Numbered from the stretch's first letter, positions 38,605-60,868 are shown. The stretch: 64,000 nucleotides of DNA from Escherichia phage vb_EcoM_bov11CS3 (MT884009.2); one strand, 5' to 3'. The notes: generated by a model from the letters alone, not told the origin. Program-made: numbers and translations.

Positions 38605-38644
38605 GATTAAGTGCTCCTGTGTTCGTTTTCTTTCGAATGGGTGC

Positions 38645-38715
38645 ACTATATCGTAGATTTATAGTAAAGTCAACACGTTTTTGAGGTTGACATCTGTCGA
38701 GGCACTTGATAAGAT
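38645..38715. promoter_or_regulatory. Divergent promoter region (minus TTGACT-17-TATAGT at 38645-38673; plus TTGACA-17-TAAGAT at 38687-38715)
   Basis: Back-to-back sigma70-like hexamers at the strand switch. Confidence 0.45.
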
Positions 38716-38746
38716 TTCTTCACCTGCAGAGCACGAGAGACAACTC

Positions 38747-39724: not shown

Positions 39725-39757
39725 TGACAGGGGCCATTGGCCCCTTCTGGAGTTTTA

Positions 39758-41218: not shown

Positions 41219-41233
41219 GAGAGGACGTTATTT

Positions 41234-41491
41234 ATGGCAACAGAAGTAGTAATCAAATCTGAACGCCCAGTTAAAAAAGCTATCAACACGTTCCCTGTGG
41301 GAACCATTGTGAGCATGATCACAGAGTCAGGCCGTGTATCTACGCTGCTGATTGTGAAATCTGCATGTTCTTCTTGTGTGTGGGCTTACGATCTGGACGA
41401 GAAAGAACTAAAAGATTTTGTTGGGGAGCTGAAAGCAACAGAGCTCGATGCTCGTATCGAAGTATTTGGTGAAACTGTGGAGGAAGAGTAA
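41234..41491 (+). CDS. hypothetical protein (85 aa)
   Basis: ATG with SD aagagagg. Confidence 0.5.
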   Translation: MATEVVIKSERPVKKAINTFPVGTIVSMITESGRVSTLLIVKSACSSCVWAYDLDEKELKDFVGELKATELDARIEVFGETVEEE

Positions 41492-41754
41492 TGACCACGA
41501 AAATCACTATTGCAGAACCGAAAGCTAACACGCAACCTATCGAAAAATTTAAATGTGGTGAGGTGGTAACATTTACACCAGATAATGAGGATGCTAAGAT
41601 TTTCGCCATGGTCACAGCTGAGTGGATGTGCGACAATACCACACAGGTTCTGCGTTTTGACACCTATCTTACAGATGAAATCAGGAACGACAAGATCGTG
41701 ACTGGTGTTGATACTGAAATTGTTTTCTACAAGAGCTTTTTAGAGGGTTTCTGA
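41491..41754 (+). CDS. hypothetical protein (87 aa)
   Basis: ATG with SD ggaggaag; overlapping stop/start. Confidence 0.5.
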   Translation: MTTKITIAEPKANTQPIEKFKCGEVVTFTPDNEDAKIFAMVTAEWMCDNTTQVLRFDTYLTDEIRNDKIVTGVDTEIVFYKSFLEGF

Positions 41755-41755
41755 T

Positions 41756-41989
41756 ATGGCAAAAATTCGTAAATTATCCAACAATCAGGTTGTGAAAGAC
41801 TTTGAATCTGGAGAGATTCTTTATGTTCGTGATGCAGATGACGAAGGTGAAGATCTTGTTATGTTGGTAGGGCACGCTGAGGACGGATGCATCCAAGCTG
41901 TTTTTCTTGAAACAGCTATGGTGCACTGGATAGAGCTGGACCTGAAAGCACGAAAACCTAAAGCAGAAATCTTGATTTACGAAGATTAA
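41756..41989 (+). CDS. hypothetical protein (77 aa)
   Basis: ATG start; track ORF. Confidence 0.5.
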   Translation: MAKIRKLSNNQVVKDFESGEILYVRDADDEGEDLVMLVGHAEDGCIQAVFLETAMVHWIELDLKARKPKAEILIYED

Positions 41990-42005
41990 CAAAAAGGAGA
42001 GAGCC

Positions 42006-42455
42006 GTGTTGAGCAAACGTGAATGCGACAGCATTAGCCTAAATTCTTATAAGAAACAATGGTTTGGGGTGGAAGTTTGCCGACTGCGGCTAGGCTCCTA
42101 CCTGAACTTCGTTTATTATGAGAGCGACAGCCGTATCGTTTCTTATGAAGTGTTCTACACTAAGAACACATTCGAACTGCGCCGTAAAGCAGAGGGAGGG
42201 AGAACTACCACCCAGAATAATTGGGAAACTATTCTGCCTCCAGATGTTATAGGAAGTCCCCTGAATGTATCTGAAGATGAAAATCTTATGGTTCATGCTA
42301 TGATGGGACTTGACAGCTTAGAGCTGGCGATCTATGATATGTCCATCGAAGCAGTTAAGCTGGACTACATCGAAAACACTTTAGAGGAAGGTATCAAGAA
42401 GTTTCTCAGTGAGAAATTAAAAGATCACTTTCATAAGGAGCTATACCTGTTATGA
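42006..42455 (+). CDS. hypothetical protein (149 aa), GTG start
   Basis: GTG with SD aaggaga. Confidence 0.5.
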   Translation: MLSKRECDSISLNSYKKQWFGVEVCRLRLGSYLNFVYYESDSRIVSYEVFYTKNTFELRRKAEGGRTTTQNNWETILPPDVIGSPLNVSEDENLMVHAMMGLDSLELAIYDMSIEAVKLDYIENTLEEGIKKFLSEKLKDHFHKELYLL

Positions 42456-42697
42456 AGACTCGTAAAGAACGTAACAAAATTTTACCTGGAGCTCTCGAAC
42501 ACCTGATGAAGTGCAGATCTATTTGGCACTCTGCCAAGGAAGGGCAGAAGGTGGTTGTGGTTAGTGACAATACCAACCCGTTTGGAGATTATACCACTAT
42601 GATGGCCCCATATGTCCGTGATGGCGTTGTGGAAGTGGTCCCTTACAACGGTCTGCATGAACGGCACTTTGAAAGCACTTTGCTAGTGGAGCTATAG
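42452..42697 (+). CDS. hypothetical protein (81 aa)
   Basis: ATG with SD taaggag. Confidence 0.5.
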   Translation: MKTRKERNKILPGALEHLMKCRSIWHSAKEGQKVVVVSDNTNPFGDYTTMMAPYVRDGVVEVVPYNGLHERHFESTLLVEL

Positions 42698-42699
42698 TC

Positions 42700-43266
42700 A
42701 TGGCGGTCAATGTGGCTTACAACACAGGAAAGCTTGACAGAGACATTGGGTGTCTTGTCCTTTCAGATACAGAAGAGTATTGGGGTTATGGGTTGCTGTC
42801 AGACCCACACCCGAGCAACCTTGTATCAACAGTGCTATACCGCTACGACCCTGTGCCAACGGTACACGACAAAGACATTCACGACCTTCGGATCAAGTGT
42901 CTGGAAGATCTGCTGAACAATGGTTGCAACGATCTGCAGGTAGCCAAGGAGAAGCTTACAAACATTCACAAAGAGGAAGTGATGAGCACCCTTAGTAAAA
43001 GATCAGTGCACAAAAAGATGATGCTGAACTTTGCAATGGGTATCTACATGGACGGGTATAAGGGAGGGGATCCGATCCTCAAGCTTCGCTGCCCAACACT
43101 GTGGGAAAGAGTGGTTGACAGTAAGGACGGTACTGCCCTGCTCGAACTCCACACTGCAGGTTGGATTTGGCGGTATGTAGACGGATACCCTTTATGGGCA
43201 TGTGGGCCAGGGGAATTTGTTGACAGACCTAGCGCGGTGGTGGATTTACTATTGCAGTTTGAATAA
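42700..43266 (+). CDS. hypothetical protein (188 aa)
   Basis: ATG start; track ORF. Confidence 0.5.
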   Translation: MAVNVAYNTGKLDRDIGCLVLSDTEEYWGYGLLSDPHPSNLVSTVLYRYDPVPTVHDKDIHDLRIKCLEDLLNNGCNDLQVAKEKLTNIHKEEVMSTLSKRSVHKKMMLNFAMGIYMDGYKGGDPILKLRCPTLWERVVDSKDGTALLELHTAGWIWRYVDGYPLWACGPGEFVDRPSAVVDLLLQFE

Positions 43267-43323
43267 AAAGGTGAGTTATAAGGTATTCATACACCTACCA
43301 ACAATACAACAGGGGAGACTGAC

Positions 43324-43599
43324 ATGACAAAAGAAGAGGCCGACGTATTAGATTTTGCACTAGAGGCTACGCAGGAGGCTTTGGTGTTAGCTTGGAAAAT
43401 GAACCAGCGTGCTGCAGAATGCAACCACCGCATCAATGAGATTCTGGGAATGTCTATGTATGATTTCACTATGCATGCCGGAGAGATTCCTGAATTAACT
43501 GCAGAGATGAATGATCTTGACAATAAAATTAATATCATTCTGAAGACAGCAGAAACAACTCACCAAACCGCCCGTAAATTTATCAACGAGAAGGTGTGA
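43324..43599 (+). CDS. hypothetical protein (91 aa)
   Basis: ATG with SD ggggaga. Confidence 0.5.
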   Translation: MTKEEADVLDFALEATQEALVLAWKMNQRAAECNHRINEILGMSMYDFTMHAGEIPELTAEMNDLDNKINIILKTAETTHQTARKFINEKV

Positions 43600-43601
43600 A
43601 T

Positions 43602-44066
43602 ATGGACTACAGCTACTGCGGGGAAGAAGTTCCTTTTAACTACAGCAATCTTACCACGAGCAATCCATATGAGACTCGCCACGGCACACACATCATTGCC
43701 ATTGACTTTGATGGAACGTTTAATGCGAGCCCTTTCATCTTCTCCCGCCTGATCAGGGATCTGAAGAAGGAGGGGTGGACAGTCTACCTTGTGACTTCCA
43801 GATTCATTACTCAAGACAATGTAGACATTGAGTATTGGCGCAAGGAGCTTGATGTTGGTGTGTTTTATACTGGAGGTGTTCAGAAGGCAGCCTATCTGGC
43901 GCAGTTTGATATCTACCCAGATATCTGGATTGATGATTCTCCGGCATGTATTCCGGCTAAGAATCAGTTAGAGTTTGCAATGAAGGAGATCGAGTATAAG
44001 TCTGAGGCTAAGCGGAACGGATGGCCCTTTATTATTGAAGATTACCCAGATCCTGAACCGGAGTAA
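43602..44066 (+). CDS. HAD-superfamily phosphatase-like protein (about 154 aa)
   Basis: Motif I IIAIDFDGTFN (DxDGT); ATG two codons inside the track GTG start. Confidence 0.5.
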   Translation: MDYSYCGEEVPFNYSNLTTSNPYETRHGTHIIAIDFDGTFNASPFIFSRLIRDLKKEGWTVYLVTSRFITQDNVDIEYWRKELDVGVFYTGGVQKAAYLAQFDIYPDIWIDDSPACIPAKNQLEFAMKEIEYKSEAKRNGWPFIIEDYPDPEPE

Positions 44067-44071
44067 GAGCC

Positions 44072-44242
44072 ATGAGGCGAAGATATCATTACCTGATGTG
44101 GAAGTTATATCAAAATGCTGCCAAAGCCTATCATATCATGTTTGGCAATGACGATCACTACATCATGTTACATCTCACCGCTATTAAGCATCACAATGAG
44201 TGGATTCATGCAATCGTGGCAGGTGATAAAGACTTTAAGTAA
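44072..44242 (+). CDS. small His-rich protein (56 aa), not in ORF track
   Basis: ATG with SD ggag overlapping the upstream stop. Confidence 0.35.
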   Translation: MRRRYHYLMWKLYQNAAKAYHIMFGNDDHYIMLHLTAIKHHNEWIHAIVAGDKDFK

Positions 44243-44369
44243 GATATGCCTTAAAACGCAACAGGAGTCCCTGTAGCGCACTTAACTCACCGCAGGTATA
44301 AGATTGCATTGCTGGGTAGTTTTGTGCGTTATTTTTAGTTACATAGCTTTCTAGACGGAGACCGATTAA

Positions 44370-44750
44370 ATGTGCAAGTGCAAATCCTATAATTGGAAAG
44401 TGAAAGGTGCCAAGCATCCAAATGTTATCGTTGATGTGCCTAAAAAACTTCGAGACGGCAAAAAACGTGTGTGCCTTGATAAGTGCATGGCTAAGCCTAT
44501 CATGAGTCTATGGGCGGCAGGATTGAAAACTCTAAACTGCTGCTGTGGTCATAACAAAGATGTTCCAAGCATCATTATCCCAGAGGATGCAGACCCTAAA
44601 GCTTATGCCAAAATATTGACCCGCTACCCCAGCACCTTTCTGATCGGAAAATGGTGTCACGATGAACTTCAATGGTGGATAGCGTACGGCAGTGTAGGTG
44701 CTGCTTTTGGCTTCCCAGCTTTGTCAGAGCGCTACGTCAAAGCATCATAA
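44370..44750 (+). CDS. Cys-rich protein (126 aa)
   Basis: Multiple Cys clusters CKCK, CLDKC, CCCGH; ATG with SD ggag. Confidence 0.5.
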   Translation: MCKCKSYNWKVKGAKHPNVIVDVPKKLRDGKKRVCLDKCMAKPIMSLWAAGLKTLNCCCGHNKDVPSIIIPEDADPKAYAKILTRYPSTFLIGKWCHDELQWWIAYGSVGAAFGFPALSERYVKAS

Positions 44751-44856
44751 TCTGTTTTAAGGCCTCAAACGAGGCCTGTGCCTTCAATAACTCTACCCTC
44801 CCTTGTGATTACACCCACCTTTCAAAAAACTTCCCCAAAACGCTTAAAAAATGTTG

Positions 44857-44886
44857 TTGACAGCACACACCCCAGTTTGCTATTCT
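44857..44886 (+). promoter_or_regulatory. sigma70-like promoter (TTGACA-18-TATTCT) with A-rich upstream tract
   Basis: Hexamers read directly on the plus strand; 34 nt upstream of gene 44920. Confidence 0.45.
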
Positions 44887-44919
44887 CATTATCACAGATA
44901 CAGAACGGAGTAACAAAAA

Positions 44920-45249
44920 ATGGCACATGTGAATATTAAACTACATTATCATGGTAGAAAACCAAAATATCCAATGCATAAAGTATTTTGGGGGTTGCAT
45001 ATCCAAGAAAAAGAAGGTATTGGTTACTGGTTTTGTGACCACGATAGACAATGGCATACCCATGAAGAAGTGTGCACTATGATAGAGCAGGGTATTAAAT
45101 TTAATTTCTCAAACTATGATCATGGTGTTAATTGCATTCGAAAATTGAAACGATTTCTTAGAAAGAATCCTGAACTTAAAGGGCTTACATTCTTTATGTC
45201 TCATAACTACATGGGGTATAGCGCTACTGTAACTGCAAGGATTAAGTAA
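44920..45249 (+). CDS. hypothetical protein (109 aa)
   Basis: ATG with SD ggag. Confidence 0.5.
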   Translation: MAHVNIKLHYHGRKPKYPMHKVFWGLHIQEKEGIGYWFCDHDRQWHTHEEVCTMIEQGIKFNFSNYDHGVNCIRKLKRFLRKNPELKGLTFFMSHNYMGYSATVTARIK

Positions 45250-45250
45250 T

Positions 45251-45469
45251 ATGAGCAAAGTAAAATTTGTTAAATTTAAAAATCCTAACGGAATAACAGC
45301 CCTTATGATGGGTGTACACTTTACACCGGGCAAAGAGTATGAGGCAGATGTATACAATGGGATAGATGGTAAAGTTGGGATAGGTGTGTGGACAAACCGT
45401 GGAGAAAGATACTTTATCAAGGATATGGATGCTCACTGGGGTATTTGGGAAGTTGTTGGAGATCTGTGA
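45251..45469 (+). CDS. hypothetical protein (72 aa)
   Basis: ATG start; track ORF. Confidence 0.5.
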   Translation: MSKVKFVKFKNPNGITALMMGVHFTPGKEYEADVYNGIDGKVGIGVWTNRGERYFIKDMDAHWGIWEVVGDL

Positions 45470-45538
45470 TGATGAAATGAAATACTGTTTCTTCGGCAAT
45501 ATGTAATATAGATTGGTTAAATATGGAGACTGATAGAG

Positions 45539-45739
45539 ATGGCTGATTTTTGTAAAGACTGTTCTGAAGAGTTGTTTGGTCGTGACTGCGGAGATCTGAA
45601 AGGATTGATCACGGAGAAGCAGTGGAAGGAAGGTTATGCGGCACCTGTTATCTGTGAAGGCTGTGGTTACACCTATGTCGATCATGAAGGTAAGCGTGTC
45701 CAGCCGTCTGAAGATGGGTCGTGTTGGGAATATTACTAA
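45539..45739 (+). CDS. small zinc-ribbon-like protein (66 aa)
   Basis: CKDC...CEGC Cys pairs; ATG with SD ggaga. Confidence 0.5.
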   Translation: MADFCKDCSEELFGRDCGDLKGLITEKQWKEGYAAPVICEGCGYTYVDHEGKRVQPSEDGSCWEYY

Positions 45740-45750
45740 TTATAAAAAGA

Positions 45751-45778
45751 AAGGGGCCAAACGGCCCCTTTTTATTTT
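45751..45778. terminator. Bidirectional rho-independent terminator between convergent blocks
   Basis: Hairpin aggggcc-aaac-ggcccct with A-tract upstream and T-tract downstream. Confidence 0.8.
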
Positions 45779-45785
45779 CCTCCTG

Positions 45786-48700
45786 TTAACTAGGGAAGTT
45801 TGTATAAGCTTCGAGATGGTATTGCTGGTTACCAGGTAGCATAACACCTATGCTTGCAATACCTAATGTTCTACCACCAGGGTTCCACTGAAACTTAAAT
45901 CCAATCCAACCCGAGCTTCTGGCTGCATCAATGTTGTCACTGTACCCAAAAGTGGCTAGACCATCAACACCTGCTCCGAAAAGCAGTTGTATCTGGTTCC
46001 TTGGTAGGCCAATAATTTCAGGTATGTAAGCACCAAAAAATGTAGGGTTGGTGGTTGTGGTCGGATTGTTCATTACCGGACCGGTAAAGACCCTCATATT
46101 AGACGTTCCTGCAGGTCTAGGGTAGGCCCCGTCAAGAGGATTTCCTTCCCAAATAAACCACTGAGGTGCCATCTGTTTGACAGTGAATGATGTTGAGGAC
46201 GTTTTGCGGCCTGCATCATCTGTAACTACAAACTTTATGGTGACATTCCCAGTAGCTTTAAATGTTACCAGTCCTGTGGTAGCATCCACTGTTGCAATGT
46301 TGGTATTGCTACTTTCCCAAGTCTTTCTAATCCCAGATACGTTGGAAGGGGTAATAGAAGGTTCCTGCATCTGCAGTTGACCACCCACAATCCCTATGCC
46401 GTTGCCAGGATTATACAGTGCACCAACCTCGTCTATAATGTTCCCTGCTTTGAGACTATACTTCCTTGAGAAATTGTAGGTTCCGTTATAAGTGTGTGTC
46501 CCTGAGAAGGTGACATCTGCCTTCCCGTAAGAGATGCAAACCAACGCATACTTCCTGTCAGGCAACGTTTCTCCAGTCTCTGGGTGAGTTTTACCCACCT
46601 GGAACACGCTCGGGTCAGTAGAGTCGTGACTATCGCTAATGGAGCTTGGACCGCCCATCAACTGTGACAAACAATTCCTTACCCATGTCCAGTTATTATC
46701 ACTGGAGAAGTCCACAGTCAAATCAAACACAACCCACTCATTCGGCTTCCACACAGGTGTTGCAATGGACTTGCCTACACCGCCTCCTTGGAGTGTTGCC
46801 GACTGTTCGGTGATCAGGGCCGCATAGGCCAGAGTCCCTAAACTCAGAGTCTGGCTTGCTGTCCTTACTACCTTAGAATCAGCATCTGTGAAGTTGTTGA
46901 TGATTTGGAATGTGCCATAAGTGTTTTTACAGGTAATTCTGGCGTTCAGTGTGTCAATCTTCCTCACATCTGCCATAGCAGTGTTAGACACAGAGAAGTC
47001 AGAAGCTTTAGCTGAGTTTGCCGCAACAGCAGGATCAACGTTAAGAGTTGCGTTGAACTGACAGGCAGGGGTAACCAGCAGCTTGTTATCACCTATTTGC
47101 TTCCATGAAACACTTTGAACAGGGAGATTCCATTTAATACCTGAGAAAACCTTAGCAACCCTTGGCCCCAAAGCTCCAGTCCTGTTGTCTTTACAGCACA
47201 TAGACATGGTGATCGTTGACGGAGTGGCCTGACCAAATAATTGCTGTGCTTTTGCAGAGGACATGGTGTAGAAATTGTCCTTAACAAACTCATCAGCGGC
47301 TAAAGATCCATCAGCCCTCCACCACTGGACCTGATACCCCGTTTTATCCCAACCACCGACCTGCTTCAAGTCCTCCCAGGAGATTTCCAGATCCCCAGTG
47401 GTAGGGTTGATTGCAGCAGTTCCCGGTGCTCCTGGTGACCACAATGGGATATCGAACCACGCTGGTTTAACCGACTGCACTGCATTAGGACCTATTGCAG
47501 CAGCAAGTTGTTGACCCATCAGCACGCGAGCATCTTTCACCAGGCCCCATTCTATCATAGACCCAGAGTAACCTTCTTTCTTGTAGGCAGAGGATCCGTT
47601 CAAATGGATGAGCCTGCTGCAGTCGAAGCCATACGCTCCACCACCGTTAGGATCTGCAAAGTTGGTTATGATTCTATCCCTAATATTTTTCCATGCCCTA
47701 CCTCCAATCTCGTAGTCATGGTCATAACATCTTTGCAACGTTGTCCAGCAAATGATTGCCATTCTTCTGCCACCTGTGAACCCGAAAGCGCCGTCATTCA
47801 GCTCTTTCCACAGGTAACAGTTGGTTGTCCACATAGCCCTGTGGATATTGAACCAGTTTATAGATTTAGCGGAGTTGTTCCACTGAGTTCCGGGTAATTC
47901 AGGCCACACTGCATTGACTAGCATGTCCTCTGTACCGGCATCCATTAAGAAACCTCTTACCTTCTTGCCCATACCTACCCTGTCTTTAGCAATCCAATTG
48001 CCAAACAGTCTCAGTTTTGGACCATAAACAACATCCTCTGGGTGCTCAAAAGAGACATACTTTAAATAGATTGTTGGGTCACCGTAGGTGCCATCACAAA
48101 CACTTTTGTGCATGTTTTCGCCAAGGTCTAGACGAAGCCCCGTCACTACTTTAGACGTGTCGGTGAATTTGTCTGTTAAGTCAAATTCATACCACCACCA
48201 CCCGCCACCTAGCATAAATTTCTTGCATCGCACAGCGTCTGTGTCAGATATTCTCTTATCCCCTGCAAAAGGTGAATCAGCAAACTGATAGTGCAGAGCA
48301 GTCTCAAATAGGTGGGTGGAAGTTCCGTTCTCTGCAAGAACTTGCTTACCTATCAGATCGCACTTAATGATCATCACAACACGCTTGTATCCGTTTGTTA
48401 CCGGAACTTGCATAGATATGGATGTTCCATCCATGTTCGATCTTAGATCACTCATGATGATATAGGGGTCGACAGCGTTACCTAAAGTTTCAGGCCCTGG
48501 AATTATCTTGTATTTCTTGACCTGGCCCATAAATCTGTCACTGGCGTAAGTTGCAGCCTCAAAACAAGAGCCACCACCAGGTAATTCTCCAGGTCCCCAG
48601 AAAAATGCCCCGTAGCAGTTATAGAACCACTTATTAGGATCGTATTTGTTCTTGAAGGTCTGGACCTCGTTGGCCTGTTTTGTCAAGAAAACCTGCGTAT

Positions 48701-51463: not shown

Positions 51464-53209
51464 TTAACGTTGTGCAATTACTACGTCTACGATATCACCA
51501 ACACCACAATATGTTAATTGCAGCAAGGTAACACTATTAGCCTTGTTATTAATAACAGGCGTTGCCGACAGGATAGCATACTTATCGTGCAAAGTCACGT
51601 TGTGACCTACAGCATCCTGAATGACATAGATAACCGCAGTGAATGGATAAGGTTTATCTTCCGCTGATGTACCAGGCCATTGTCCTATTGTAAAATCCCC
51701 TTTCGCGTGGACAACATACATACTGGCCTGCCCGTTAGGTGTCCATGTCCCACTGGACGCGTCAACCTCCTCTAAATCAAAATCTACCTTTCCTGCGTGG
51801 AAAGTAGGGGCAGTAATGGTTTTACCCGCCTCAATTTCTTGAGAGGTGGTTATCTTGCCACTGGAGTTAATGCCATTACAAACAAAGTTGACATTAGAGA
51901 AGTCTGGCAGCCACCCAGTCACTGTGCCGGATATTTCAAGGTTGTGAAGGTAGGTGGTGCCCGTCCCTGCTGCGTTTAAACTAACATCTCCATTTACCTG
52001 CAAGTTTCTGGTAACGTTGCAGTTTTCAGAGTTTGCAGTTGTTGCAGTTAAAGTAGTGGTTGTCAGCTCGGTAATTACACCTTTGTTGGCTGTAAGCCCT
52101 TCCCCTTCAAAAGTTGCACGCTCATTGACTCTTAGGGTATTCAGAGCTATGTTTTGGATAGAGGCTGTACCTCGAATAACTACAGATCCGCCAACTTCTA
52201 AATCACCATTTATTAATGCGTCCCCCGTGCTTTCAATATAGCTAGGGTAAATCATGGTGCCATCGACAGAGTAGGTTATCCCTGTAACAGTGCCTGTCAC
52301 CTCAAGGTTCTTAACCTTGGTGGTTCCATCTACCTGCAATGTCGGTTCGGTTGCTGCCTTCATGGCATTACCACGAATGTACACGTAGTCAAAAAAGTTA
52401 TTACCTAGACCATCAAAATGCACATCGTTATTATTAGCCACTGGTTTCCCAGAAGTTATAGTGTCAGCTATAACCCTGTGGGTGGACACTTCATGAGGTT
52501 GCAGCTCTGTGCTTCTCCAGTCTGCATGCTTAGGATCACTCCACGCAAAAGTAAGTGTAGAAGTATTTGCCGTGAGGATTAGGTTCCTGAAGCGTGCAGT
52601 AGAATCTGCTCCATTAACAGGCCCATGTAAGGTGAGTGTGCCACCAACTATAGTGTTAGCAAGTTCTGTAAGACCTTTTACCACCAAAGACCCTACAGTA
52701 ACTTTCATTCCCTCCATGGCTTCAAATATGCTATCCACATAGTCAACAACAAACTCTGTGTTTGCTATAGACTCGGATTTGTCGTCCATTGGAGGCGTAG
52801 GTACTCGCGGGTCACCTTCGAACCTCGGACTGTTAAGTTTTGCGTAGTATTTTGCCATTACTGCAGAATCGGTATATAATCTCCAGTTTGGAGATTGTGA
52901 AGGATCTGCTGGCATTCTAACCGGGTTAGATTTTGATGCTGCGGGAGCGTACCACCACTGAGGGCCTGTGTCCCCTTTAAACTCGTACAGCTGGTTAAAA
53001 ACTGTTGTGGATGCACCATACGCCCAAGGGATCGGTGGCGTTTTAAAATAAAGGGTGTCAAGCATGGCTTTTCGTACCGTAGGGATGGTGGTCCCATCCT
53101 CTACGACAACTTCATCCACAGCGTTACCGTTGACAATCAGGTGCAAACGTTCAGAATCAACAATTACTTGATCTACCGCCTGCTCAAAGCTTGTCATGTC
53201 TTGCGCCAT
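51464..53209 (-). CDS. Putative tail fibre or tailspike protein (581 aa)
   Basis: Thr/Gly/Asn-rich beta-strand repeats; ATG with SD aaggaga. Confidence 0.55.
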   Translation of the reverse strand: MAQDMTSFEQAVDQVIVDSERLHLIVNGNAVDEVVVEDGTTIPTVRKAMLDTLYFKTPPIPWAYGASTTVFNQLYEFKGDTGPQWWYAPAASKSNPVRMPADPSQSPNWRLYTDSAVMAKYYAKLNSPRFEGDPRVPTPPMDDKSESIANTEFVVDYVDSIFEAMEGMKVTVGSLVVKGLTELANTIVGGTLTLHGPVNGADSTARFRNLILTANTSTLTFAWSDPKHADWRSTELQPHEVSTHRVIADTITSGKPVANNNDVHFDGLGNNFFDYVYIRGNAMKAATEPTLQVDGTTKVKNLEVTGTVTGITYSVDGTMIYPSYIESTGDALINGDLEVGGSVVIRGTASIQNIALNTLRVNERATFEGEGLTANKGVITELTTTTLTATTANSENCNVTRNLQVNGDVSLNAAGTGTTYLHNLEISGTVTGWLPDFSNVNFVCNGINSSGKITTSQEIEAGKTITAPTFHAGKVDFDLEEVDASSGTWTPNGQASMYVVHAKGDFTIGQWPGTSAEDKPYPFTAVIYVIQDAVGHNVTLHDKYAILSATPVINNKANSVTLLQLTYCGVGDIVDVVIAQR

Positions 53210-53218
53210 GATTTCTCC

Positions 53219-53485
53219 TTAAGCTTTTTGCTCTTCGTTTTTAACGTGGTCAGGGTGCTGGCAACCCCACCGGAGCGAGATGAATTTGCTAATAAGCTGG
53301 GGGCAAGCTACTGAAGGCGCGTATATCCACGCATACCATTCAGGAAGCGTATCATTATACCCCATATGAATAAACACCCCAGTCATCACCGCCATGCCTA
53401 TGTTCGACCATAGCTTAGATTGGGACACTTTCGTAGGGTCATCAGATGCCGCAACCAGTCCCCATAAAAACTGAGTTAGTTTCAT
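53219..53485 (-). CDS. small membrane protein (88 aa)
   Basis: Hydrophobic segments; ATG with SD aagaggg. Confidence 0.45.
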   Translation of the reverse strand: MKLTQFLWGLVAASDDPTKVSQSKLWSNIGMAVMTGVFIHMGYNDTLPEWYAWIYAPSVACPQLISKFISLRWGCQHPDHVKNEEQKA

Positions 53486-53496
53486 TTACCCTCTTT

Positions 53497-54540
53497 TTAA
53501 GCATAAGATATAGTGATCCATTGACCATTTACAAGTTTTTGGATAGCACCTGTCCAGTAATCACCTTGATAAGGGTGTTTATAAGCGTAGTTACCAGAGC
53601 ACATCACATGTCCAGGGTAGACTCTTGACTCTCTGTAGGTGGTTTTAAAACGGTTTGCTATCCTTACATCATCAACCCCTCTGCTAGGCATAGGGATAGT
53701 AAGGTTACCGCTACTGTCTGCGCCGTTACCATTTACCCTGCGGACCACGTTTCTTCCACCAACTGTTGCATATTGGCCCCTGACGGTTTCATCGTTACAA
53801 TCAACTCTTCCACCTATTTGAGCGCTTCCGCAGGATTGTTGTCCATTAACAGTGGCTCTTGGTATAGTAACTGCATTGGCATTTGCAGAGGAACTTTTTG
53901 CATCGTTGCATTCAAGATTTCCTTGGATAGCCAGTCTTGCACGGTTGGCAGTTATAGCATTGAGCTTCATAGCCGAAAACACAGGCTGCCCACCAGAAGG
54001 CTGAAATCTCCAACGGAACCCGTCTATTTGGTGAGAAGGATCATCAAGGTCTGTGCCGTCAGCACCACCGATGTTGTCCATAATCCAGAAATCCATAGTC
54101 GTCTTGTCTGGCGTTATGGTGGTATATATTGCCGCACTGTCTGTTGACGCAGATGCAAACTCGATTCTTTGGAGACCTAAAGTTTGAGTCTGAGTCATTA
54201 TGTCTCCAGACTTGTCAACATATAGATCGTCCATTTCTTCAGGTGAGTATACATTGAGAACTTGACGTGCAGCAGCTTTGTCTGGAACGTCTGCTAGATT
54301 ATTAGTGACCCTTAAGAATCTATTATCCCATCCTGGGACAACATCTTCTGTTAAATGCTTTAACCACGCAGAAAGCATGTGAAGTTCAAAGTTAACAACT
54401 TCACATGCCATTCTTTGTGTCATATCCCAACCTTTCAATCTCTCTTCTTTTTTTGGTTGAGACTTATTCAACTCTCCCGTATTTTCAAGCACAACATCCT
54501 GATTGGCCCAAATATCAAGAGGGATAACTGGTTTAGTCAT
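53497..54540 (-). CDS. Tail fibre or receptor-binding protein, paralogue 1 (about 347 aa)
   Basis: Paralogous to 55555-56595: shared N-terminus PL(D/E)IWA and C-terminus QKLVNGQWIT(I/V)(S/N)YA; ATG with SD aggaga. Confidence 0.6.
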   Translation of the reverse strand: MTKPVIPLDIWANQDVVLENTGELNKSQPKKEERLKGWDMTQRMACEVVNFELHMLSAWLKHLTEDVVPGWDNRFLRVTNNLADVPDKAAARQVLNVYSPEEMDDLYVDKSGDIMTQTQTLGLQRIEFASASTDSAAIYTTITPDKTTMDFWIMDNIGGADGTDLDDPSHQIDGFRWRFQPSGGQPVFSAMKLNAITANRARLAIQGNLECNDAKSSSANANAVTIPRATVNGQQSCGSAQIGGRVDCNDETVRGQYATVGGRNVVRRVNGNGADSSGNLTIPMPSRGVDDVRIANRFKTTYRESRVYPGHVMCSGNYAYKHPYQGDYWTGAIQKLVNGQWITISYA

Positions 54541-54629
54541 CACGTTCTCCTGAGAAAATTCCTTAGGACTATTTTAACACTTTAGAGAACAAAATGCAAG
54601 AACGGAGTCCTTTCCGTTCTGACCTTTGT

Positions 54630-54944
54630 TTACCTTTTACTATGCTCTACGAGCATGTGCAAAATCTTTTGTACATCAGCTCGGATGCCGGAGACATCTG
54701 TCCTGACATCCTGCTTAAGGTCGTTAATATCGGCCTCTAGCTTGCTTAACCGGGTCTCGATAACGGAATCAAGTCTATCTTTTGTAACCATACTGTTTTT
54801 CACTAAGATGAGGTCTTTCTCCAGCTCATCTAACCTCTTGGAAATGCCTTTCCATTTGGTGTGCCACTGGTTGAAAGCCCATACACAGATCGGGACAACG
54901 GTACCCATGCAGATACCGTATAATGCCGCCAAATCCAACTCCAC
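54630..54944 (-). CDS. membrane-anchored coiled-coil protein (104 aa), GTG start
   Basis: N-terminal TM segment; GTG with strong SD gaggagg. Confidence 0.45.
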   Translation of the reverse strand: MELDLAALYGICMGTVVPICVWAFNQWHTKWKGISKRLDELEKDLILVKNSMVTKDRLDSVIETRLSKLEADINDLKQDVRTDVSGIRADVQKILHMLVEHSKR

Positions 54945-54955
54945 AACACCTCCTC

Positions 54956-55540
54956 TTAGAGGGTAGGTCGCTCCGGGAAGAAAATGTCAGGGGCTTTAGA
55001 TGTATCTATTTCAAGAAGTTTTACCCTGTACATTTTCAAATCTCTGATGTTACGTTTCTGGTCATCAGTAAGATCATATTCAAGGTCAATCATGTCTTGA
55101 TAGGCACCAATTCTAGCAGTAGCCCAAGCAAGTTCTGTCTCTATGACACCCTCTGCCTGTTGAACAAAGAATTCATTGTCTGTGACAAATTCATCACCAA
55201 CTAAACGCAAAGCGTCGTGGTGAAGCATAATGTTTTCTGGTACCTCTTCTTTTTTGGCGATAACCACACGAAGACCTGGAGCAGGCCATAAGGCATCAGG
55301 TTCTTCTGTAGATGTCTTAAGAATTCCCTTTTCGTCAACAAGTAGGAAGATACAACCCGGATTTTCTTGTCGTAATGTTCGTGACTGCACATACCAATCG
55401 CCATCATCATTACGTAAAAAATACCCAGTGTATGCGGTGTAATCCTCAACCTCTTGAGGGGTCAGCTCTTTGGTTTCCTTGTTGGCGTGGTATTCGCCAG
55501 ATCCCGGCTGGTAAAGTTTAAACTCTTGAAGTATTTTCAT
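54956..55540 (-). CDS. hypothetical protein (194 aa)
   Basis: ATG start; track ORF. Confidence 0.5.
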   Translation of the reverse strand: MKILQEFKLYQPGSGEYHANKETKELTPQEVEDYTAYTGYFLRNDDGDWYVQSRTLRQENPGCIFLLVDEKGILKTSTEEPDALWPAPGLRVVIAKKEEVPENIMLHHDALRLVGDEFVTDNEFFVQQAEGVIETELAWATARIGAYQDMIDLEYDLTDDQKRNIRDLKMYRVKLLEIDTSKAPDIFFPERPTL

Positions 55541-55554
55541 GCTAGTCCTCCGAT

Positions 55555-56595
55555 CTATGCATAATTAACAGTGATCCATTGACCGTTTACAAGTTTTTGT
55601 AAAGGTCCTGCCCAGTAAGTTGAACCACGCATCTCTTTTTTGTCACCGAAATGCCAGCCTGTGACAACGTAGCCGTTGCGGATTGGAGATTCAGAAACGC
55701 CGTCCACAAGTCTTGCACCGATTCTGATGTCTTGCACACCTGTCTGCGGGATAGTGATCGTTACATCACCGTTACCGTTAGCCGTCACTCCGTTCACAGA
55801 GCGAACCACATTTCTGTTACCGACAACACAGTGCTGGCTTCTTACAACCATACTGTCACAACTTGCACCACCATTAACATATACTGACCCAGCAGTCAAT
55901 TGACTAGCCACATTACAGTTGGTGAATGTTGCGGTATTGCTGATAGTAAGGTTATTACACCTCATGTTATCGACAACTTCAACATTGCCTACCACTTTCA
56001 ACAGCGCACGGTTAGCTGTGATCGCGTTAAGGTACATCAAAGTGAACTCTGGATTAATATCCGGCTGAGTTGGCTGGAATCTCCAACGAAACGCATCTAT
56101 TGTAGATGTGCCACCATCATCAAACGACCCAAAATTATCACTTAACCCAAAGTCGAGAGTTGTCTTATCTGGGCCAATAGTTGTCTCTATCCAAGCCTTA
56201 TCTGTCTCGGCAGCTTTAAAGTTGATACGTTGCAAACCCAATGGGCCTGTCATTGTATCACCTGTAACTTTTACATACCTGGCGTCTGCCTCTTCCTTGG
56301 TAATAATCCCAAGGTTTCTACGGGCAACAGGAATGTTCAAAAGATCACTCAAGTTATTATCACGTACCAGATAACGGCCTTCTTGAGCGGGGATCTGCTC
56401 GTCAGCAATGTATTTTGCCCAAGTTCCGAGCATATTGAAAATATAGTTAAGTTCTTCACATGAGGGCTTTTGACCAAGATCCCAACCTTTTCTCCACAAA
56501 TCATCAATCGGGCGTAGCCTGTTCTGTCTGTGGGTGTTAGGCAGAACCTGATCCTCCTCTGCCCAAATCTCTAATGGAAAACTAGGTTTTGACAT
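55555..56595 (-). CDS. Tail fibre or receptor-binding protein, paralogue 2 (346 aa)
   Basis: Paralogous to 53497-54540. Confidence 0.6.
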   Translation of the reverse strand: MSKPSFPLEIWAEEDQVLPNTHRQNRLRPIDDLWRKGWDLGQKPSCEELNYIFNMLGTWAKYIADEQIPAQEGRYLVRDNNLSDLLNIPVARRNLGIITKEEADARYVKVTGDTMTGPLGLQRINFKAAETDKAWIETTIGPDKTTLDFGLSDNFGSFDDGGTSTIDAFRWRFQPTQPDINPEFTLMYLNAITANRALLKVVGNVEVVDNMRCNNLTISNTATFTNCNVASQLTAGSVYVNGGASCDSMVVRSQHCVVGNRNVVRSVNGVTANGNGDVTITIPQTGVQDIRIGARLVDGVSESPIRNGYVVTGWHFGDKKEMRGSTYWAGPLQKLVNGQWITVNYA

Positions 56596-56607
56596 TTTAT
56601 CTCCTGA

Positions 56608-58680
56608 TTATGAGAAGTCTGGCGGGACAACATCTTCTACATACCCTTTCAGAGCAACCTGCCCCATATGAAGCACGGTAGAATCTCTAGCGGTAACAGT
56701 GATGCTGTCAGACATTACTTGCGGGTATGCCCACACATACTGTTTTACCTCAGGGTATCTATACTCTATAGTTGCCATGTTTCCGCAAATACATCTCCAT
56801 AAAAATTCTTGGTAATTCCTAGTTGGGTCGTAGCCATATACCGGAGCAAGCTCTTTACTAGGAACGAACCCTGCAAGGTATTGTATTTCAGACGGTTGCC
56901 AACCTAACTTAACGATAGGTATGTTTACAGACTCTTTTGCCTTTTCAATACCTCCCTGCATCACCCAATCGTAGCACTCGGTGCAGAAGAAATCAAGAGC
57001 ACCTGCTTCCTTTTTATATTGGTCAGCAAGGTTCAGCTTTTGTGTAAGCTCAGTTTCCATAATGGTTGGGAAAAACAACAAAGCTGTCATCTGAGCTGAT
57101 GCAGCGTGTGCCTTTATTGCCTTTGAAATAGCCGCAATACGAGCGCCAAGCTTACCACGACAAAATGCTACATACTTGTCGTAAACACCGCCAGTTTTAG
57201 GATCGTCAATAGTCCCAATATCTAATGCATACTCACCTGTCTCATCATAAAACGCCTGTTTTGTAGGGTAATCATAAATACAAGGTCTACGAGTATCGGT
57301 ATTGTACCACCACCACGGTTCACCAACCTGCATAATCACTGGCAGGTTGTTTCTCATAGCGGCTGATGCAAAATTCTTAAATACTGCAGTAAGGAAATTC
57401 ATACCCTCTTCAATGGTTGGAGACAGGAGGTAGCTACAAGGTGTATACCCTGTTTTAGCGTAATTATCGTTCCAGTCTCTTTGGGTCCATTCCAACGGGC
57501 AGGCATCGCTGAAAAGCTCAAAACTTACAGATTGCATAACGTCGAAGTTATGTCGTTTGGCATTGTACATAAAATCATCATGCCATTTATAAGCTGCAGC
57601 GTTTAGCGCTCCTGTTCTGTTTATAGACCATTGAGTTCCTGACCATGTGTAGTCATAATAATGACTCATACCAACATAATGGTTTATGGTTCCGGTATAG
57701 CCCAGACGCTTGATATTGTTCAACACCCTTAAAGGAGATACGTTCCACATATCGTCATATGCGGTGCAGATCCCAACGTCGTGCTCTCTCACCTGAATAT
57801 TGTTAAGTTGCATCATTTTCCAGCCTGTGTCTGGCTGAAGCAGATCTAGGCGCAACTCACACTCTACGTTTTCCGTTCTCGGGTCTGTGCTGTTACTTAC
57901 CCAGTCTTTAGGCATAAGCGGTATTAAAATCCTTCTCACCTGCCGAGGATCAACACCCATCATGCTGTTGTTCTGGTCCATCCCGACGCAGTCCTCAAAA
58001 TCAATATGAATTTCTGCAACATTCTTATCCTCTGAGATGCTGACAGCATATTGAGCTAAAGGAACATAGATGATTGTGCCATCAACAAGGTCTACAGTCA
58101 TAATCATCTTTTCAGGAGTGGAGAAGTTGCTGGCGTTGGTTATTGACATTCTGAACCAAAGCTTGGTATTTCTCATCTCATAATGATCATCAAACCCAAT
58201 ACCGAAATGATCATACTTGTCAACTGTTTCCCAAATGCACCCGGCCATACCTCCATATGTTCTTGACACTAAACGGTTAATACAACAGTTATTATCTGCA
58301 ACAATACAGGTACTTTCAGTCTGCTGAGTAGTTGTAACCCAATATCTTGGGTGGAACATTCTCTCCTCAACAGTATCCCAAGATATCCTGTCAAGATTCT
58401 CATCTGAAACTATTGTACATTTCGCCCTTTGTGTTCCAATCATCACCCCTTGGGATTTTGATGAAAACTCCATAAAGAAGCTTCTTGGCAACCTATTGGG
58501 TAATTTGTCAACAATTTCCACCGGGATCTCAATACTGGTTGCCCCAATTGGGATAGTTACATCGCCCTCAACATGATTATAATCCCTACCAGGAACGGCA
58601 GTATCCTGAACTGTTCGGTAATGAAACTGTGCAGCCATTGTAGAGTAATCACGGTAAGGTTTAAAAACAGCTGTTGCCAT
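56608..58680 (-). CDS. Putative virion structural protein, tail or baseplate associated (690 aa)
   Basis: Located between the baseplate-associated protein and the tail-fibre paralogues. Confidence 0.5.
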   Translation of the reverse strand: MATAVFKPYRDYSTMAAQFHYRTVQDTAVPGRDYNHVEGDVTIPIGATSIEIPVEIVDKLPNRLPRSFFMEFSSKSQGVMIGTQRAKCTIVSDENLDRISWDTVEERMFHPRYWVTTTQQTESTCIVADNNCCINRLVSRTYGGMAGCIWETVDKYDHFGIGFDDHYEMRNTKLWFRMSITNASNFSTPEKMIMTVDLVDGTIIYVPLAQYAVSISEDKNVAEIHIDFEDCVGMDQNNSMMGVDPRQVRRILIPLMPKDWVSNSTDPRTENVECELRLDLLQPDTGWKMMQLNNIQVREHDVGICTAYDDMWNVSPLRVLNNIKRLGYTGTINHYVGMSHYYDYTWSGTQWSINRTGALNAAAYKWHDDFMYNAKRHNFDVMQSVSFELFSDACPLEWTQRDWNDNYAKTGYTPCSYLLSPTIEEGMNFLTAVFKNFASAAMRNNLPVIMQVGEPWWWYNTDTRRPCIYDYPTKQAFYDETGEYALDIGTIDDPKTGGVYDKYVAFCRGKLGARIAAISKAIKAHAASAQMTALLFFPTIMETELTQKLNLADQYKKEAGALDFFCTECYDWVMQGGIEKAKESVNIPIVKLGWQPSEIQYLAGFVPSKELAPVYGYDPTRNYQEFLWRCICGNMATIEYRYPEVKQYVWAYPQVMSDSITVTARDSTVLHMGQVALKGYVEDVVPPDFS

Positions 58681-59366
58681 TAACCCTCCTGTCTAGTTGC
58701 GTTTACTGTAATACTTTCACAATAAATGGTTGTGGTGTCCCAATCAGGTCTTACGTCAGGAACATACAGCAAAGTAGCCAGCCCACCAACTCCGAATTGG
58801 TTTTCTTCCCACACTGATCCGAAGCCAAGAGCTGTAGAGTCCCCTTCAAAACCAAAAGCTTGCCCTTGCGATTCTGTAAGACGCAAATGACAAGGTAATG
58901 GTAGCATATCTAAGATCTGATCGATAGACTGCAATATGTCAAAGCAAGTTTTTCTAATATTTATGTCAAACCTGAAGTTGTCTCCTTTCCACGTATCGAA
59001 ATTGTCTCTTCCGAACAATTGTCGCAAGGTGGAGATGACATCTTCGCGAGTCCCGCCCCTTGATGCTGCGGCCTGCTGAATAATTAGTGTGGCACGAAAA
59101 TCAGCATCTGAAAGTCCATTCCTAAGAATACCAAGTTGATTACCAACTTCGTCAAGGTATCTTCCGCTGGCATTGTTAAGCAATCTTCCTTCAGCCAAAC
59201 CTACCAGCATCTTATCAACATCCTCCAACCTTTTAAGGTATACGGTTAAGAATGTGACTAAATTAACCTTCTCAGCCAGAAAATCTCCAGGTAGGTAGTC
59301 AAGACCTCCCTGAACAAAATCTGGCAGAGTGTGGATGTGGTTAACATCCGACTTAATCTCTGCCAT
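58680..59366 (-). CDS. Putative baseplate-associated protein (228 aa)
   Basis: Directly downstream of the baseplate J-like gene with overlapping stop/start. Confidence 0.45.
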   Translation of the reverse strand: MAEIKSDVNHIHTLPDFVQGGLDYLPGDFLAEKVNLVTFLTVYLKRLEDVDKMLVGLAEGRLLNNASGRYLDEVGNQLGILRNGLSDADFRATLIIQQAAASRGGTREDVISTLRQLFGRDNFDTWKGDNFRFDINIRKTCFDILQSIDQILDMLPLPCHLRLTESQGQAFGFEGDSTALGFGSVWEENQFGVGGLATLLYVPDVRPDWDTTTIYCESITVNATRQEG

Positions 59367-59377
59367 ATCTCGCCGCC

Positions 59378-60868
59378 TTAAATAGTTTGTTGGAAAGTTA
59401 TATTACTTTCGTCGAGGTCAAACACCTCGGTCATGTTCGCAACAATATCGTTTGTAGTGTAAGCTTCATCAGAAGCTCCTACGGATTTAACTTGAATTAC
59501 CAGTCTATTAAATCTGCCTATTGACACAGCAGCGGATGCAGCACCGACCAATTGGATATTGTATAACGTATCTGCAACATCCAGTCCGTTAACAACCTGC
59601 AAAAGAGCCTCTACAATGGCATCTTTTTCGGTTGTGGAAAGCGCAGCACCGGAGTAGGTAATTCTTACATCCAAGCGGTAGGTATTTGCCTTGGAGTAAT
59701 AAATTCTTTCAGTTTGACCGTCAGATGTAATGACATCGTAGAAAATATTACCATAAGTCCTGTTCGTACAGGCTATAGTTTGGTAAAGTGCTTGGCAAAT
59801 GTCCTCCGTTGCACCACCAAACACAACCACTTGGAACTTGTAAGGAGGTATACCTTTAGCATCAGTTTTATCAGTGTTGTTGGAGAACACTCTCACTTTC
59901 TCAACACCTTTCACCTCGCTTACAGCGCTAAGGATTGCAGGACGGGTAGCCTTCGATGTTAACTGTTTTGTGCTGGAAGCTCTTAAGCGATACTCTGAGT
60001 CTTTCTCAACATCCCTGCCCTCATTGAATCTTTCTCTGTTGGTAAGCTTGATAAATCCACTGGGAGTAGGTGACATTGTTGTCACGGTTTCTGCCTCTCT
60101 TGACAGCTCACCAGCCTCGTTAGCGATAACATCTAGGGTGATAGTTCTTTCCCCTACAATCGGAGATACTCTGAAATCTACCCTACTATTAAGTCCAACT
60201 TGATCAAGATTCGAATTGTACCCTATCCACAACGTTCCTGTCAACATATCGATCTGAATCAAATCGTCGTTCAACAGGGTTGTATTATCGACAATGAACT
60301 GCTTAATCTCTCCGTAAAAGCTTGGCAGATCAGAGGAGTCCAGAGACTTATCTGTTAAAACCAGACTTTTTGTTTTGATACTTCCATCTGTCTGGTTGGT
60401 GATTTGAAAGTTGTATTTACCAATCCTTAGGTCTGGAGCATTTATTCTGTGGGCAATAAGATTCCCTGCCACCTGCACATCATTGCTAAGAATAAAGTTG
60501 CCACTATCCAGCGTATAAGTTTTGGAATCATAAATCATATTGTACGGCACAGTTGTGTTGATTGTCAACTGGCAGGTACCTGATGATTTAGAACGGCCTC
60601 TTCGGTAAATACCCTGTCTTCCAAGAAGCTCATCTAGGTAAATACCTTCTGCCCCATACAGCGTCTGTGATGCGTATACAGATGCTGCCATAAGAATAAG
60701 TTGATACTCTCGCTCGTTGAAGATAGTGGTCAGCTTATCTGCAACGGAGTTACTCTGTACGTTGAAGTTTTCGCCAAAAGCACGGATCAGGCTTTGCTTA
60801 GTTTCAACGATTAGGTCATTTAGGGTTGGTATAACGAAACCAGCCTCTGTCAATCCATACTTAGCCAC
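59378..60868 (-). CDS. Baseplate J-like protein (496 aa), GTG start
   Basis: N-terminus MAKYGLTEAGFVIPTLNDLI resembles baseplate J family proteins; GTG with SD ggagga. Confidence 0.65.
   Translation of the reverse strand: MAKYGLTEAGFVIPTLNDLIVETKQSLIRAFGENFNVQSNSVADKLTTIFNEREYQLILMAASVYASQTLYGAEGIYLDELLGRQGIYRRGRSKSSGTCQLTINTTVPYNMIYDSKTYTLDSGNFILSNDVQVAGNLIAHRINAPDLRIGKYNFQITNQTDGSIKTKSLVLTDKSLDSSDLPSFYGEIKQFIVDNTTLLNDDLIQIDMLTGTLWIGYNSNLDQVGLNSRVDFRVSPIVGERTITLDVIANEAGELSREAETVTTMSPTPSGFIKLTNRERFNEGRDVEKDSEYRLRASSTKQLTSKATRPAILSAVSEVKGVEKVRVFSNNTDKTDAKGIPPYKFQVVVFGGATEDICQALYQTIACTNRTYGNIFYDVITSDGQTERIYYSKANTYRLDVRITYSGAALSTTEKDAIVEALLQVVNGLDVADTLYNIQLVGAASAAVSIGRFNRLVIQVKSVGASDEAYTTNDIVANMTEVFDLDESNITFQQTI

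Follow-up and report, generated by a model that had tools for sequence, protein, structure and literature searches.

Why should a phage keep two genes for what looks like the same short tail fiber? This question is raised by positions 53,497 to 56,595 of a 64,000-nucleotide (nt) stretch of Escherichia phage vb_EcoM_bov11CS3 (MT884009.2; the whole stretch is called the window below), where two genes for short tail fiber (STF) proteins, STF-A and STF-B, are separated by two small genes. A preliminary description of the locus had taken the proteins for a paralogous pair of putative receptor-binding proteins, and had suggested either duplicated fibers with different receptor specificity or a host-range switching module. 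We found its protein sizes, its coordinates, and the two intervening genes to be correct. The locus is that of an rV5-like phage of the genus Vequintavirus. Our interpretation, to which we assign a probability of about 0.7, is that the region encodes two co-expressed short tail fibers of this phage together with their single assembly chaperone. The pair as such is a known feature, described in 2013 and 2021, and what we add to it is incremental.

Two paralogous short tail fibers and a single chaperone

The pair and the genes between its members are arranged as follows.

55555-56595, minus strand: STF-A, short tail fiber paralog A, the equivalent of rV5 gp33; open reading frame (ORF) of 346 amino acids (aa)
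54956-55540, minus strand: Tfa, tail fiber assembly chaperone of the Mu U/lambda Tfa type, the equivalent of rV5 gp32; 194 aa
54630-54944, minus strand: 104-aa protein with an N-terminal transmembrane (TM) helix and a predicted coiled coil; PHROG 5345 (unknown function), E 1.5e-48
53497-54540, minus strand: STF-B, short tail fiber paralog B, the equivalent of rV5 gp30; 347 aa from the ATG at 54540

A mechanical ORF call for STF-B (53497-54543) begins at a GTG one codon earlier and gives 348 aa; annotated relatives all start at the ATG at 54540.

BLASTP aligned STF-A with STF-B over their full length at 43% identity (E 7e-95). The global alignment scored 709, against -81 ± 20 for shuffled sequences (z = 39), a similarity so far above chance that the two are true paralogs. 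Synonymous sites between them are saturated (proportion of differing synonymous sites, pS, 0.83); hence, the duplication is old and the copies are not recombining. Recent gene conversion between STF-A and STF-B was ruled out in the window, and also in the related contig L006, by this pS and by a nucleotide identity that stays flat at 32-62%.

Where the two proteins resemble each other differs in part from what had been described, i.e., conserved ends around a divergent center. The ends are indeed conserved, the first ~30 residues at 50% identity and the C-terminal 15 residues (...QKLVNGQWITxxYA) more strongly still, but the best-conserved block is central: residues ~106-205 (all residue blocks are given in STF-A numbering) reach up to 70% per 30-residue segment, around 121-150. 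Divergence is instead confined to three separate segments, ~46-105 (27-37%), 206-255, and 293-331. Block by block, the identity between STF-A and STF-B is:

Residues 1-70: 40%
Residues 71-125: 42%
Residues 126-205: 54%
Residues 206-255: 24%
Residues 256-292: 54%
Residues 293-331: 26%
Residues 332-346: 80%

Both proteins match the profile of PHROG 4465, 'tail fiber protein', from position 1 to 342 of 342 (E 2e-171 for STF-A and 2e-166 for STF-B); Pfam gave no match for either. Their N-termini match the phiTE short tail fiber in PDB 9CUY (residues 1-108 of STF-A, E 1.4e-19; residues 1-83 of STF-B, E 1.1e-9), a repeat-like motif, NLxDVxxxxxARxNL, matches 9ZD7, another phage short tail fiber, and residues 286-343 of STF-A match residues 440-501 of Mu S (5YVQ; E 8e-7). 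When a family profile of 32 members was compared with the PDB, it matched 9CUY (E 1.8e-34), 9ZD7 (E 2.2e-23), Mu S (E 9.4e-13), and Mu S/S' (8JU3; E 4.5e-6). AlphaFold2 monomer models of the two proteins are poor (mean predicted local distance difference test score, pLDDT, of 64 for STF-A and 60 for STF-B), as would be expected of subunits of a trimeric fiber, and we used them only for a Foldseek check of family membership, not for residue mapping. In that check the Mu S-U complex was the only significant PDB match to both of these low-confidence models (5yvq_A; E 4.5e-6 for STF-A and 2.7e-6 for STF-B). The profile, N-terminal, C-terminal (STF-A), and structural matches thus bear out the description of the pair as paralogous receptor-binding fibers. 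Across the family, Q333, G338, and W340 are invariant, whereas segment 293-331 is the hypervariable part. Because the paralogs are so dissimilar in this distal segment, a difference in receptor specificity between them is plausible, as was already proposed for rV5 in the published passage on its fibers (PMC3606486).

The chaperone was identified by Pfam PF02413 (Caudo_TAP; E 8e-12, residues 121-192) and PHROG 136 (E 2e-36). It adjoins STF-A directly downstream, STF-B has no chaperone of its own, and GenBank relatives have one Tfa gene per Vequintavirus genome. Searches of the window by tblastn, with full-length, N-terminal, and C-terminal parts as queries, found neither a second chaperone nor a third fiber paralog. 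Mass spectrometry of rV5 virions detected the counterparts of all three proteins, gp30, gp32, and gp33, according to the proteomic passage of the rV5 study (PMC3606486). The 104-aa protein between chaperone and STF-B, with its hydropathy peak at residues 1-25, is conserved in Vequintavirinae; it is 31% identical to PVP-SE1 gp44 (E 1e-18) and follows the chaperone in the same slot in PVP-SE1, in Avunavirus, and in contigs L006 and L009. In phage phi92, gp149 occupies this slot and is of similar build, without a tblastn match.

The 5.5 kb around the pair matches Escherichia phage vb_EcoM_bov22_2 (MT884010.2) at identical coordinates and with 100% identity. As a query, this segment matched 115 records at 90-100% identity, nearly all of them rV5-like Vequintavirus, with 111 covering at least 80%. 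Among the matches listed, every Vequintavirus record has both fiber genes and all other Vequintavirinae records have one copy, as do phi92-like phages. The BASEL phage EduardKellenberger labels the four genes, in order, 'short tail fiber protein', 'tail fiber chaperone', 'hypothetical protein', and 'short tail fiber protein', and the rV5_ev147 record uses 'tail fiber protein' and 'tail fiber assembly protein'. Identity in ~113 Vequintavirus genomes amounts to 98-100% for STF-A and 95-100% for STF-B. In pairwise comparisons inside the genus, STF-A has a ratio of nonsynonymous to synonymous substitution rates (dN/dS) of 0.02, and STF-B one of 0.04-0.06; both genes are under strong purifying selection. 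The idea that STF-B is a decaying copy was ruled out by this ratio and by the detection of its counterpart in rV5 virions. Sampling outside GenBank was small (four IMG/VR loci, three Logan contigs, and two ENA metagenome contigs); the population-level analysis consists of ~10 sequences plus GenBank identity counts, and the IMG/VR scan gave only the four close loci.

The searches also returned 16-21 'Campylobacter phage' records each (MG0656xx, host Campylobacter jejuni) that are 98-100% identical here to Escherichia coli rV5-like or phi92-like phages, which suggests that the hosts are mislabeled or that E. coli phages were passengers in the preparations concerned.

Origin of the pair and divergence of the two copies

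In neighbor-joining trees of both the full and the core alignments, the STF-A clade is sister to the STF-B clade. Since all other Vequintavirinae records among the matches listed have a single copy, this topology points to a duplication within the present lineage and not to the import of a foreign fiber. Acquisition of STF-B by transfer from a distant fiber was also considered and is not favored: the two clades are sisters in the core region, and the paralogs are mutual best matches in residues 126-205.

The position of STF-B can be read from relatives that have one fiber. In Seunavirus PVP-SE1 and an Avunavirus, the gene order is fiber, chaperone, 104-aa membrane protein, 157-aa four-TM membrane protein, ~88-aa membrane protein, and lateral fiber. 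STF-B, together with a hairpin and a late-promoter-like motif (53497-54629), fills the exact slot of the 157-aa four-TM gene (PVP-SE1 gp43; compare L003, 6186-7255, and L005, 6209-7272). No remnant of the four-TM gene of PVP-SE1 and Avunavirus was found in the window. The elements and further genes that bear on the pair are:

54599-54620, minus strand: putative terminator-like hairpin, AGAACGGAAAGGACTCCGTTCT then TGCATTTTGT, a consensus match at the end of the STF-A/Tfa/104-aa unit
54570-54579, minus strand: putative late-promoter-like motif before STF-B, TGTTAAAATA, one mismatch from the rV5 late motif TggTAaAAtA (PMC3606486)
54552-54546, minus strand: strong ribosome-binding site, AGGAGAA, before STF-B and 3' of the late motif
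53219-53485, minus strand: 88-aa small hydrophobic protein, called membrane protein in relatives; PHROG 1322, E 2.7e-32
59378-60868, minus strand: baseplate wedge protein, the equivalent of phi92 gp145 and phiTE 'wedge 1'; 496 aa, with a baseplate label in BASEL and rV5 records

The hairpin, the late-promoter-like motif, and the ribosome-binding site all lie within the 86-nt gap 5' of STF-B. From these putative consensus matches we infer that STF-B is a separate unit with its own terminator and late promoter. Contig L009 has a similarly placed hairpin element, and TGCTAAAATA where the window has the late motif. On both strands of the window, the motif TGGTAAAATA with at most one mismatch occurs 17 times, against 7.2 expected, and 10 of these 17 fall on the minus strand, which encodes the structural genes. 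Its only exact copy (60910-60901) is just upstream of the wedge gene; other matches are found at, e.g., 52848-52857 and 57300-57309. A promoter is also annotated somewhere inside the matched 5.5-kb region in the Gotham record.

To locate the differences between the copies, we considered the 89 alignment columns with a conservation of 88% or more among single-copy relatives. STF-A kept 78 of the 89 and STF-B 66. Over half of the departures of STF-B (12 of 23) fall in residues 1-62, the predicted docking joint with ~30 conserved positions, as compared with 1 of 11 for STF-A; the nearly invariant PIDDLW, for example, is changed to PKKEER in STF-B. Identity to the single-copy relatives shows the same pattern:

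Residues 1-70: STF-A 60-69%, STF-B 40-44%
Residues 71-125: STF-A 44-51%, STF-B 46-47%
Residues 256-292: STF-A 53-59%, STF-B 47-65%

Hence, outside the N-terminal joint both paralogs are equally close to the single-copy relatives, and, judged by these alignments, the N-terminal docking domain of STF-B is remodeled.

More distant carriers of the pair came from assemblies. The Logan assemblies L006-L008 carry a STF-A with 87% and a STF-B with 78% identity to those of the window. L009 (116-3254; ENA ERZ15185469 NODE_327), an uncultured metagenomic contig, has a STF-A that is 73% and a STF-B that is 46% identical to those of the window, with the window's gene order, its hairpin/late-motif gap, and a chaperone 45% identical to the window's. 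Its two paralogs are 85% identical in the tip (293-331) and 100% identical in the last 15 residues, with N-termini at 37% and a STF-B N-terminus of the 'B type'. In the tip the proportion of differing nonsynonymous sites (pN) is 0.12, and pS is 0.77 (saturated synonymous sites); this indicates that the shared tip is old and has been maintained by selection, not by recent conversion. No cultured phage with the L009 arrangement was found in the GenBank phage collection, where the best match is 45.7%. Across the lineages aligned here, the persistent difference between the paralogs is at the predicted docking end, and the tip differs as well only in rV5-like phages. The remodeling of STF-B and the L009 pattern hint at two distinct docking positions.

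Among the neighboring genes, the wedge gene has homologs at the matching position in PVP-SE1 and phi92. The 88-aa protein, downstream of the pair, is 53% identical to PVP-SE1 gp42 and 35% to phi92 gp144, and is kept also in Avunavirus; a hydropathy scan over 19 residues found no segment of it above 1.4. Both small proteins, of 104 and 88 aa, are placed among virion genes, inside the tail-fiber module. Directly upstream of STF-A, a 690-aa gene (56608-58680) has Calx-beta, NCTSP_N, and NCTSP TIM-barrel domains (N4 gp65-like 'non-contractile tail sheath protein'); the fiber phi92 gp142, homologous to this protein, has been named in recent work as the binder of the primary receptor used by the genus, NGR polysaccharide. 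Downstream of the pair lies a 581-aa lateral fiber (51464-53209; 82% identical in L006). Its homologs carry Pfam Phage_phiTE_241_N/C in precomputed gene tables, and the window protein itself has no Pfam match at E <= 0.01. Elsewhere in the window, GC skew and AT skew flip sign at ~38000-46000, coinciding with a block of plus-strand ORFs (38681-44066) in an otherwise minus-strand segment.

What two fibers may be for

We suggest that each paralog probably forms a trimeric, downward-pointing fiber of the phi92 gp147/phiTE STF/Mu GpS type. Its globular N-terminal joint (residues ~1-90) would enter the baseplate wedge and be followed by a short shaft; the docking partner would be the 496-aa wedge protein, by comparison with the phiTE (PMC11972413) and phi92 (PMC13450770) homologs. 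At the other end, a C-terminal Mu-S-like domain would bear the receptor-contacting loops (~293-331), and its near-invariant QKLVNGQW... end is probably where one Mu-U-like chaperone starts the trimerization of both fibers from the C-terminus. We propose this sharing because Q333, G338, and W340 are invariant and each genome has one chaperone gene. As its terminal receptor, the genus uses the first glucose (Glc-I) of the lipopolysaccharide (LPS) outer core, as reported in the receptor sections of three studies (PMC7229145, PMC8594841, bioRxiv 10.64898/2026.07.23.740414); the fibers would bind the LPS core around Glc-I and relay the signal to the wedge, leading to contraction. STF-A would have kept the ancestral docking domain, while STF-B, set in the four-TM slot after a terminator and a late promoter of its own, would have evolved about twice as fast, with a remodeled docking domain and, in rV5-like phages, a remodeled tip. 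Both are most likely permanent parts of the virion, at non-equivalent positions or directed at two LPS-core variants, and not switched alternatives.

Several points weigh against this interpretation. The receptor evidence comes from host genetics on whole phages, so that a receptor for each paralog taken singly, and the necessity of each, are hypothetical. Genetic screens give one terminal receptor, Glc-I, genus-wide, so two specificities are not required. That one chaperone serves two tips of 26% identity is assumed, and, as no structure of an rV5-like baseplate was found, the number and position of the fibers are conjectural. The promoter and the terminator are consensus matches only. On its own, STF-B has no significant sequence match to Mu S. 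Finally, the low pLDDT of the models and their low Foldseek TM-scores leave the domain boundaries approximate.

Could the two genes instead be alternative cassettes, switched by inversion or recombination or swapped between phages? Mu S, a distant relative of the family, has a C-terminal part that is switched by inversion of the G segment, and the family profile matches Mu S/S' (8JU3); moreover, a direct repeat of 63 nt, 83% identical, is present at both 3' ends. That repeat, however, simply encodes the conserved C-terminal motif. The two genes, both complete, run in one direction on the minus strand, both proteins occur together in virions by the rV5 proteomic passage (PMC3606486), and the pS between them means that there is no ongoing recombination in this phage. 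A search of 53000-57000 for inverted repeats flanking the pair found none, only three matches of 14-18 nt (78-86%) that do not flank it. No serine invertase (Gin/Cin) was found at the locus, where the ORFs from 51464 to 60868 all encode fiber, chaperone, small membrane, or baseplate proteins. Nor was there a diversity-generating retroelement of the BPP-1 Mtd type, as the mismatches of the 63-nt repeat are not adenine-specific and the locus has no reverse transcriptase-like ORF. The comparison with relatives found no allelic exchange among the ~113 genomes, with dN/dS at 0.02-0.06. As far as sequence can decide, switching is refuted and the pair is fixed; we give a switch or an exchangeable cassette almost no credence, and the host-range switching module and cassette exchange of the preliminary description are not upheld.

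If both fibers are built into the virion together, as we prefer, the matter becomes one of where each sits and what each binds. Tentatively, STF-B may dock at a site or on a partner different from the canonical wedge site of STF-A and represent a second structural class of short fiber. Alternatively, according to the published idea, the two compete for the same six wedge sites and give a mixed virion that recognizes two LPS-core chemotypes and a wider range of E. coli cores. This is possible but somewhat doubtful. Two LPS chemotypes were proposed in the relevant passage of Kropinski 2013 (PMC3606486), the tip (293-331) is 26% identical between the paralogs against 54-80% for the flanking scaffold and is hypervariable family-wide, and the wedge is of equal length in phages with one and two fibers (496 aa here, ~497 in PVP-SE1 and Avunavirus 24-2-1, ~495 in phi92), so no extra docking domain is evident. 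Competition for one site does not predict, however, that STF-B should have changed its docking end at positions near-invariant in single-copy relatives (PIDDLW to PKKEER). A duplication for a second specificity also leaves L009 unexplained, with the same tip under selection on different N-termini, and host genetics in the sections that treat it indicates one shared terminal receptor, Glc-I (PMC7229145, PMC8594841). It is improbable, in our view, that the paralogs form mixed trimers, A2B or AB2, and hence one kind of short fiber. They are near-identical in length with the same predicted order of secondary structure, they have in common conserved central blocks, a C-terminal initiation motif with 80% identity, and a single chaperone, and both are in virions by the same rV5 account (PMC3606486). 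The putative promoter of STF-B, on the other hand, would uncouple their stoichiometry, and the N-terminal joint (40%) and shaft 206-255 (24%) are too diverged for obvious symmetric three-fold packing. The Mu S fiber is a homotrimer, and single-copy relatives clearly function as homotrimers. The homologs have likewise been modeled as trimers of a single protein, both the phiTE STF (PMC11972413) and, as a prediction, phi92 gp147 (PMC13450770). The weights that we give to these readings are rough; those of distinct docking and of a shared site overlap, and together they do not sum to one.

Were distinct docking true, rV5-like baseplates would carry two non-equivalent sets of Mu-S-type fibers, e.g., 12 trimers instead of 6, and L009 would represent a stage at which both sets still bear the same receptor-binding tip. 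The comparison by domain suggests that it is the docking domain, and not the tip alone, that distinguishes STF-A from STF-B. Phages of the rV5 type have found wide use against pathogenic E. coli, whether in O157 typing sets, in therapeutic cocktails, or as 'bred' phages, and these short fibers are credited with their terminal-receptor step. With the pair fixed, co-expressed, and constrained, engineers would find the host-range variation of the genus in the large lateral fibers and not here.

Comparison with known fiber systems

The closest systems are rV5 itself and its relatives in the BASEL collection, from which the window differs in nothing material; it is another isolate. Phages V5/rV5 have the same genes in identical order, with a STF-A counterpart 99.4% identical to ours. 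In the published passage on rV5, gp30 (347 aa) and gp33 were described as short-tail-fiber-like with 42.3% identity (Kropinski 2013, Virol J, PMC3606486), and it was suggested there that they recognize "two chemotypes of LPS" (PMC3606486). The passage on the BASEL Vequintavirus reports no considerable allelic variation in the 'short tail fiber' paralogs (Maffei 2021, PLoS Biol, PMC8594841, S5C/D Fig). Homology of the pair to phi92 and to Mu GpS/GpU is likewise published (PMC3606486, PMC8594841). The comparison by domain, the STF-B N-terminus, its own promoter, and the L009 lineage go beyond those passages on the pair (PMC3606486, PMC8594841).

T4 gp12 has an analogous role, irreversible binding to the LPS core that triggers contraction. 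The rV5 study mentions, where it treats the fibers, HHpred similarity of both proteins to gp12 with probabilities of 97-98% (PMC3606486), which our searches did not reproduce: no gp12 chain appeared among the PDB sequence matches (E <= 1 for each protein; E <= 0.01 for the profile) or in Foldseek. T4 gp12 also differs in that it folds under the baseplate, whereas the phi92 and phiTE homologs point downward, and in its chaperone system.

Nearer in sequence is the phiTE short fiber (PDB 9CUY/9MJN), which shares the homologous N-terminal joint and the terminal motif QKxVNGxW. Its residues 3-92 form a globular joint docked on wedge 1, and its authors proposed it for the initial binding of this flagellotropic phage (PMC11972413). 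Unlike STF-A and STF-B, it is 554 aa long, with a long coiled coil and immunoglobulin-like domains, and is present in a single copy. The phi92 fiber gp147, called 'fibre III' in a 2026 description, is a trimer pointing downward on wedge gp145's C-terminal domain, with a proposed role in irreversible binding and the start of contraction (PMC13450770). As here, the gene order in phi92 is wedge, baseplate protein, fiber, Tfa (gp148), and small TM/coiled-coil protein. The phi92 protein is 23.7% identical to STF-B over 99% of the length and 48% identical to the N- and C-terminal parts of STF-A. Unlike here, phi92 has a single copy of the fiber, and overall identity is low.

In phage Mu, GpU remains on the fiber tip, and S/U alternates with S'/U' through Gin-mediated inversion of the G segment; a single variant, paired with its own chaperone, is made at any one time. 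Mu GpS/GpU (5YVQ) resembles the locus described here in its homologous C-terminal domain and in the Caudo_TAP chaperone directly downstream. In contrast to Mu, the present locus, without inversion anatomy, appears to express two full fiber genes together beside one chaperone.

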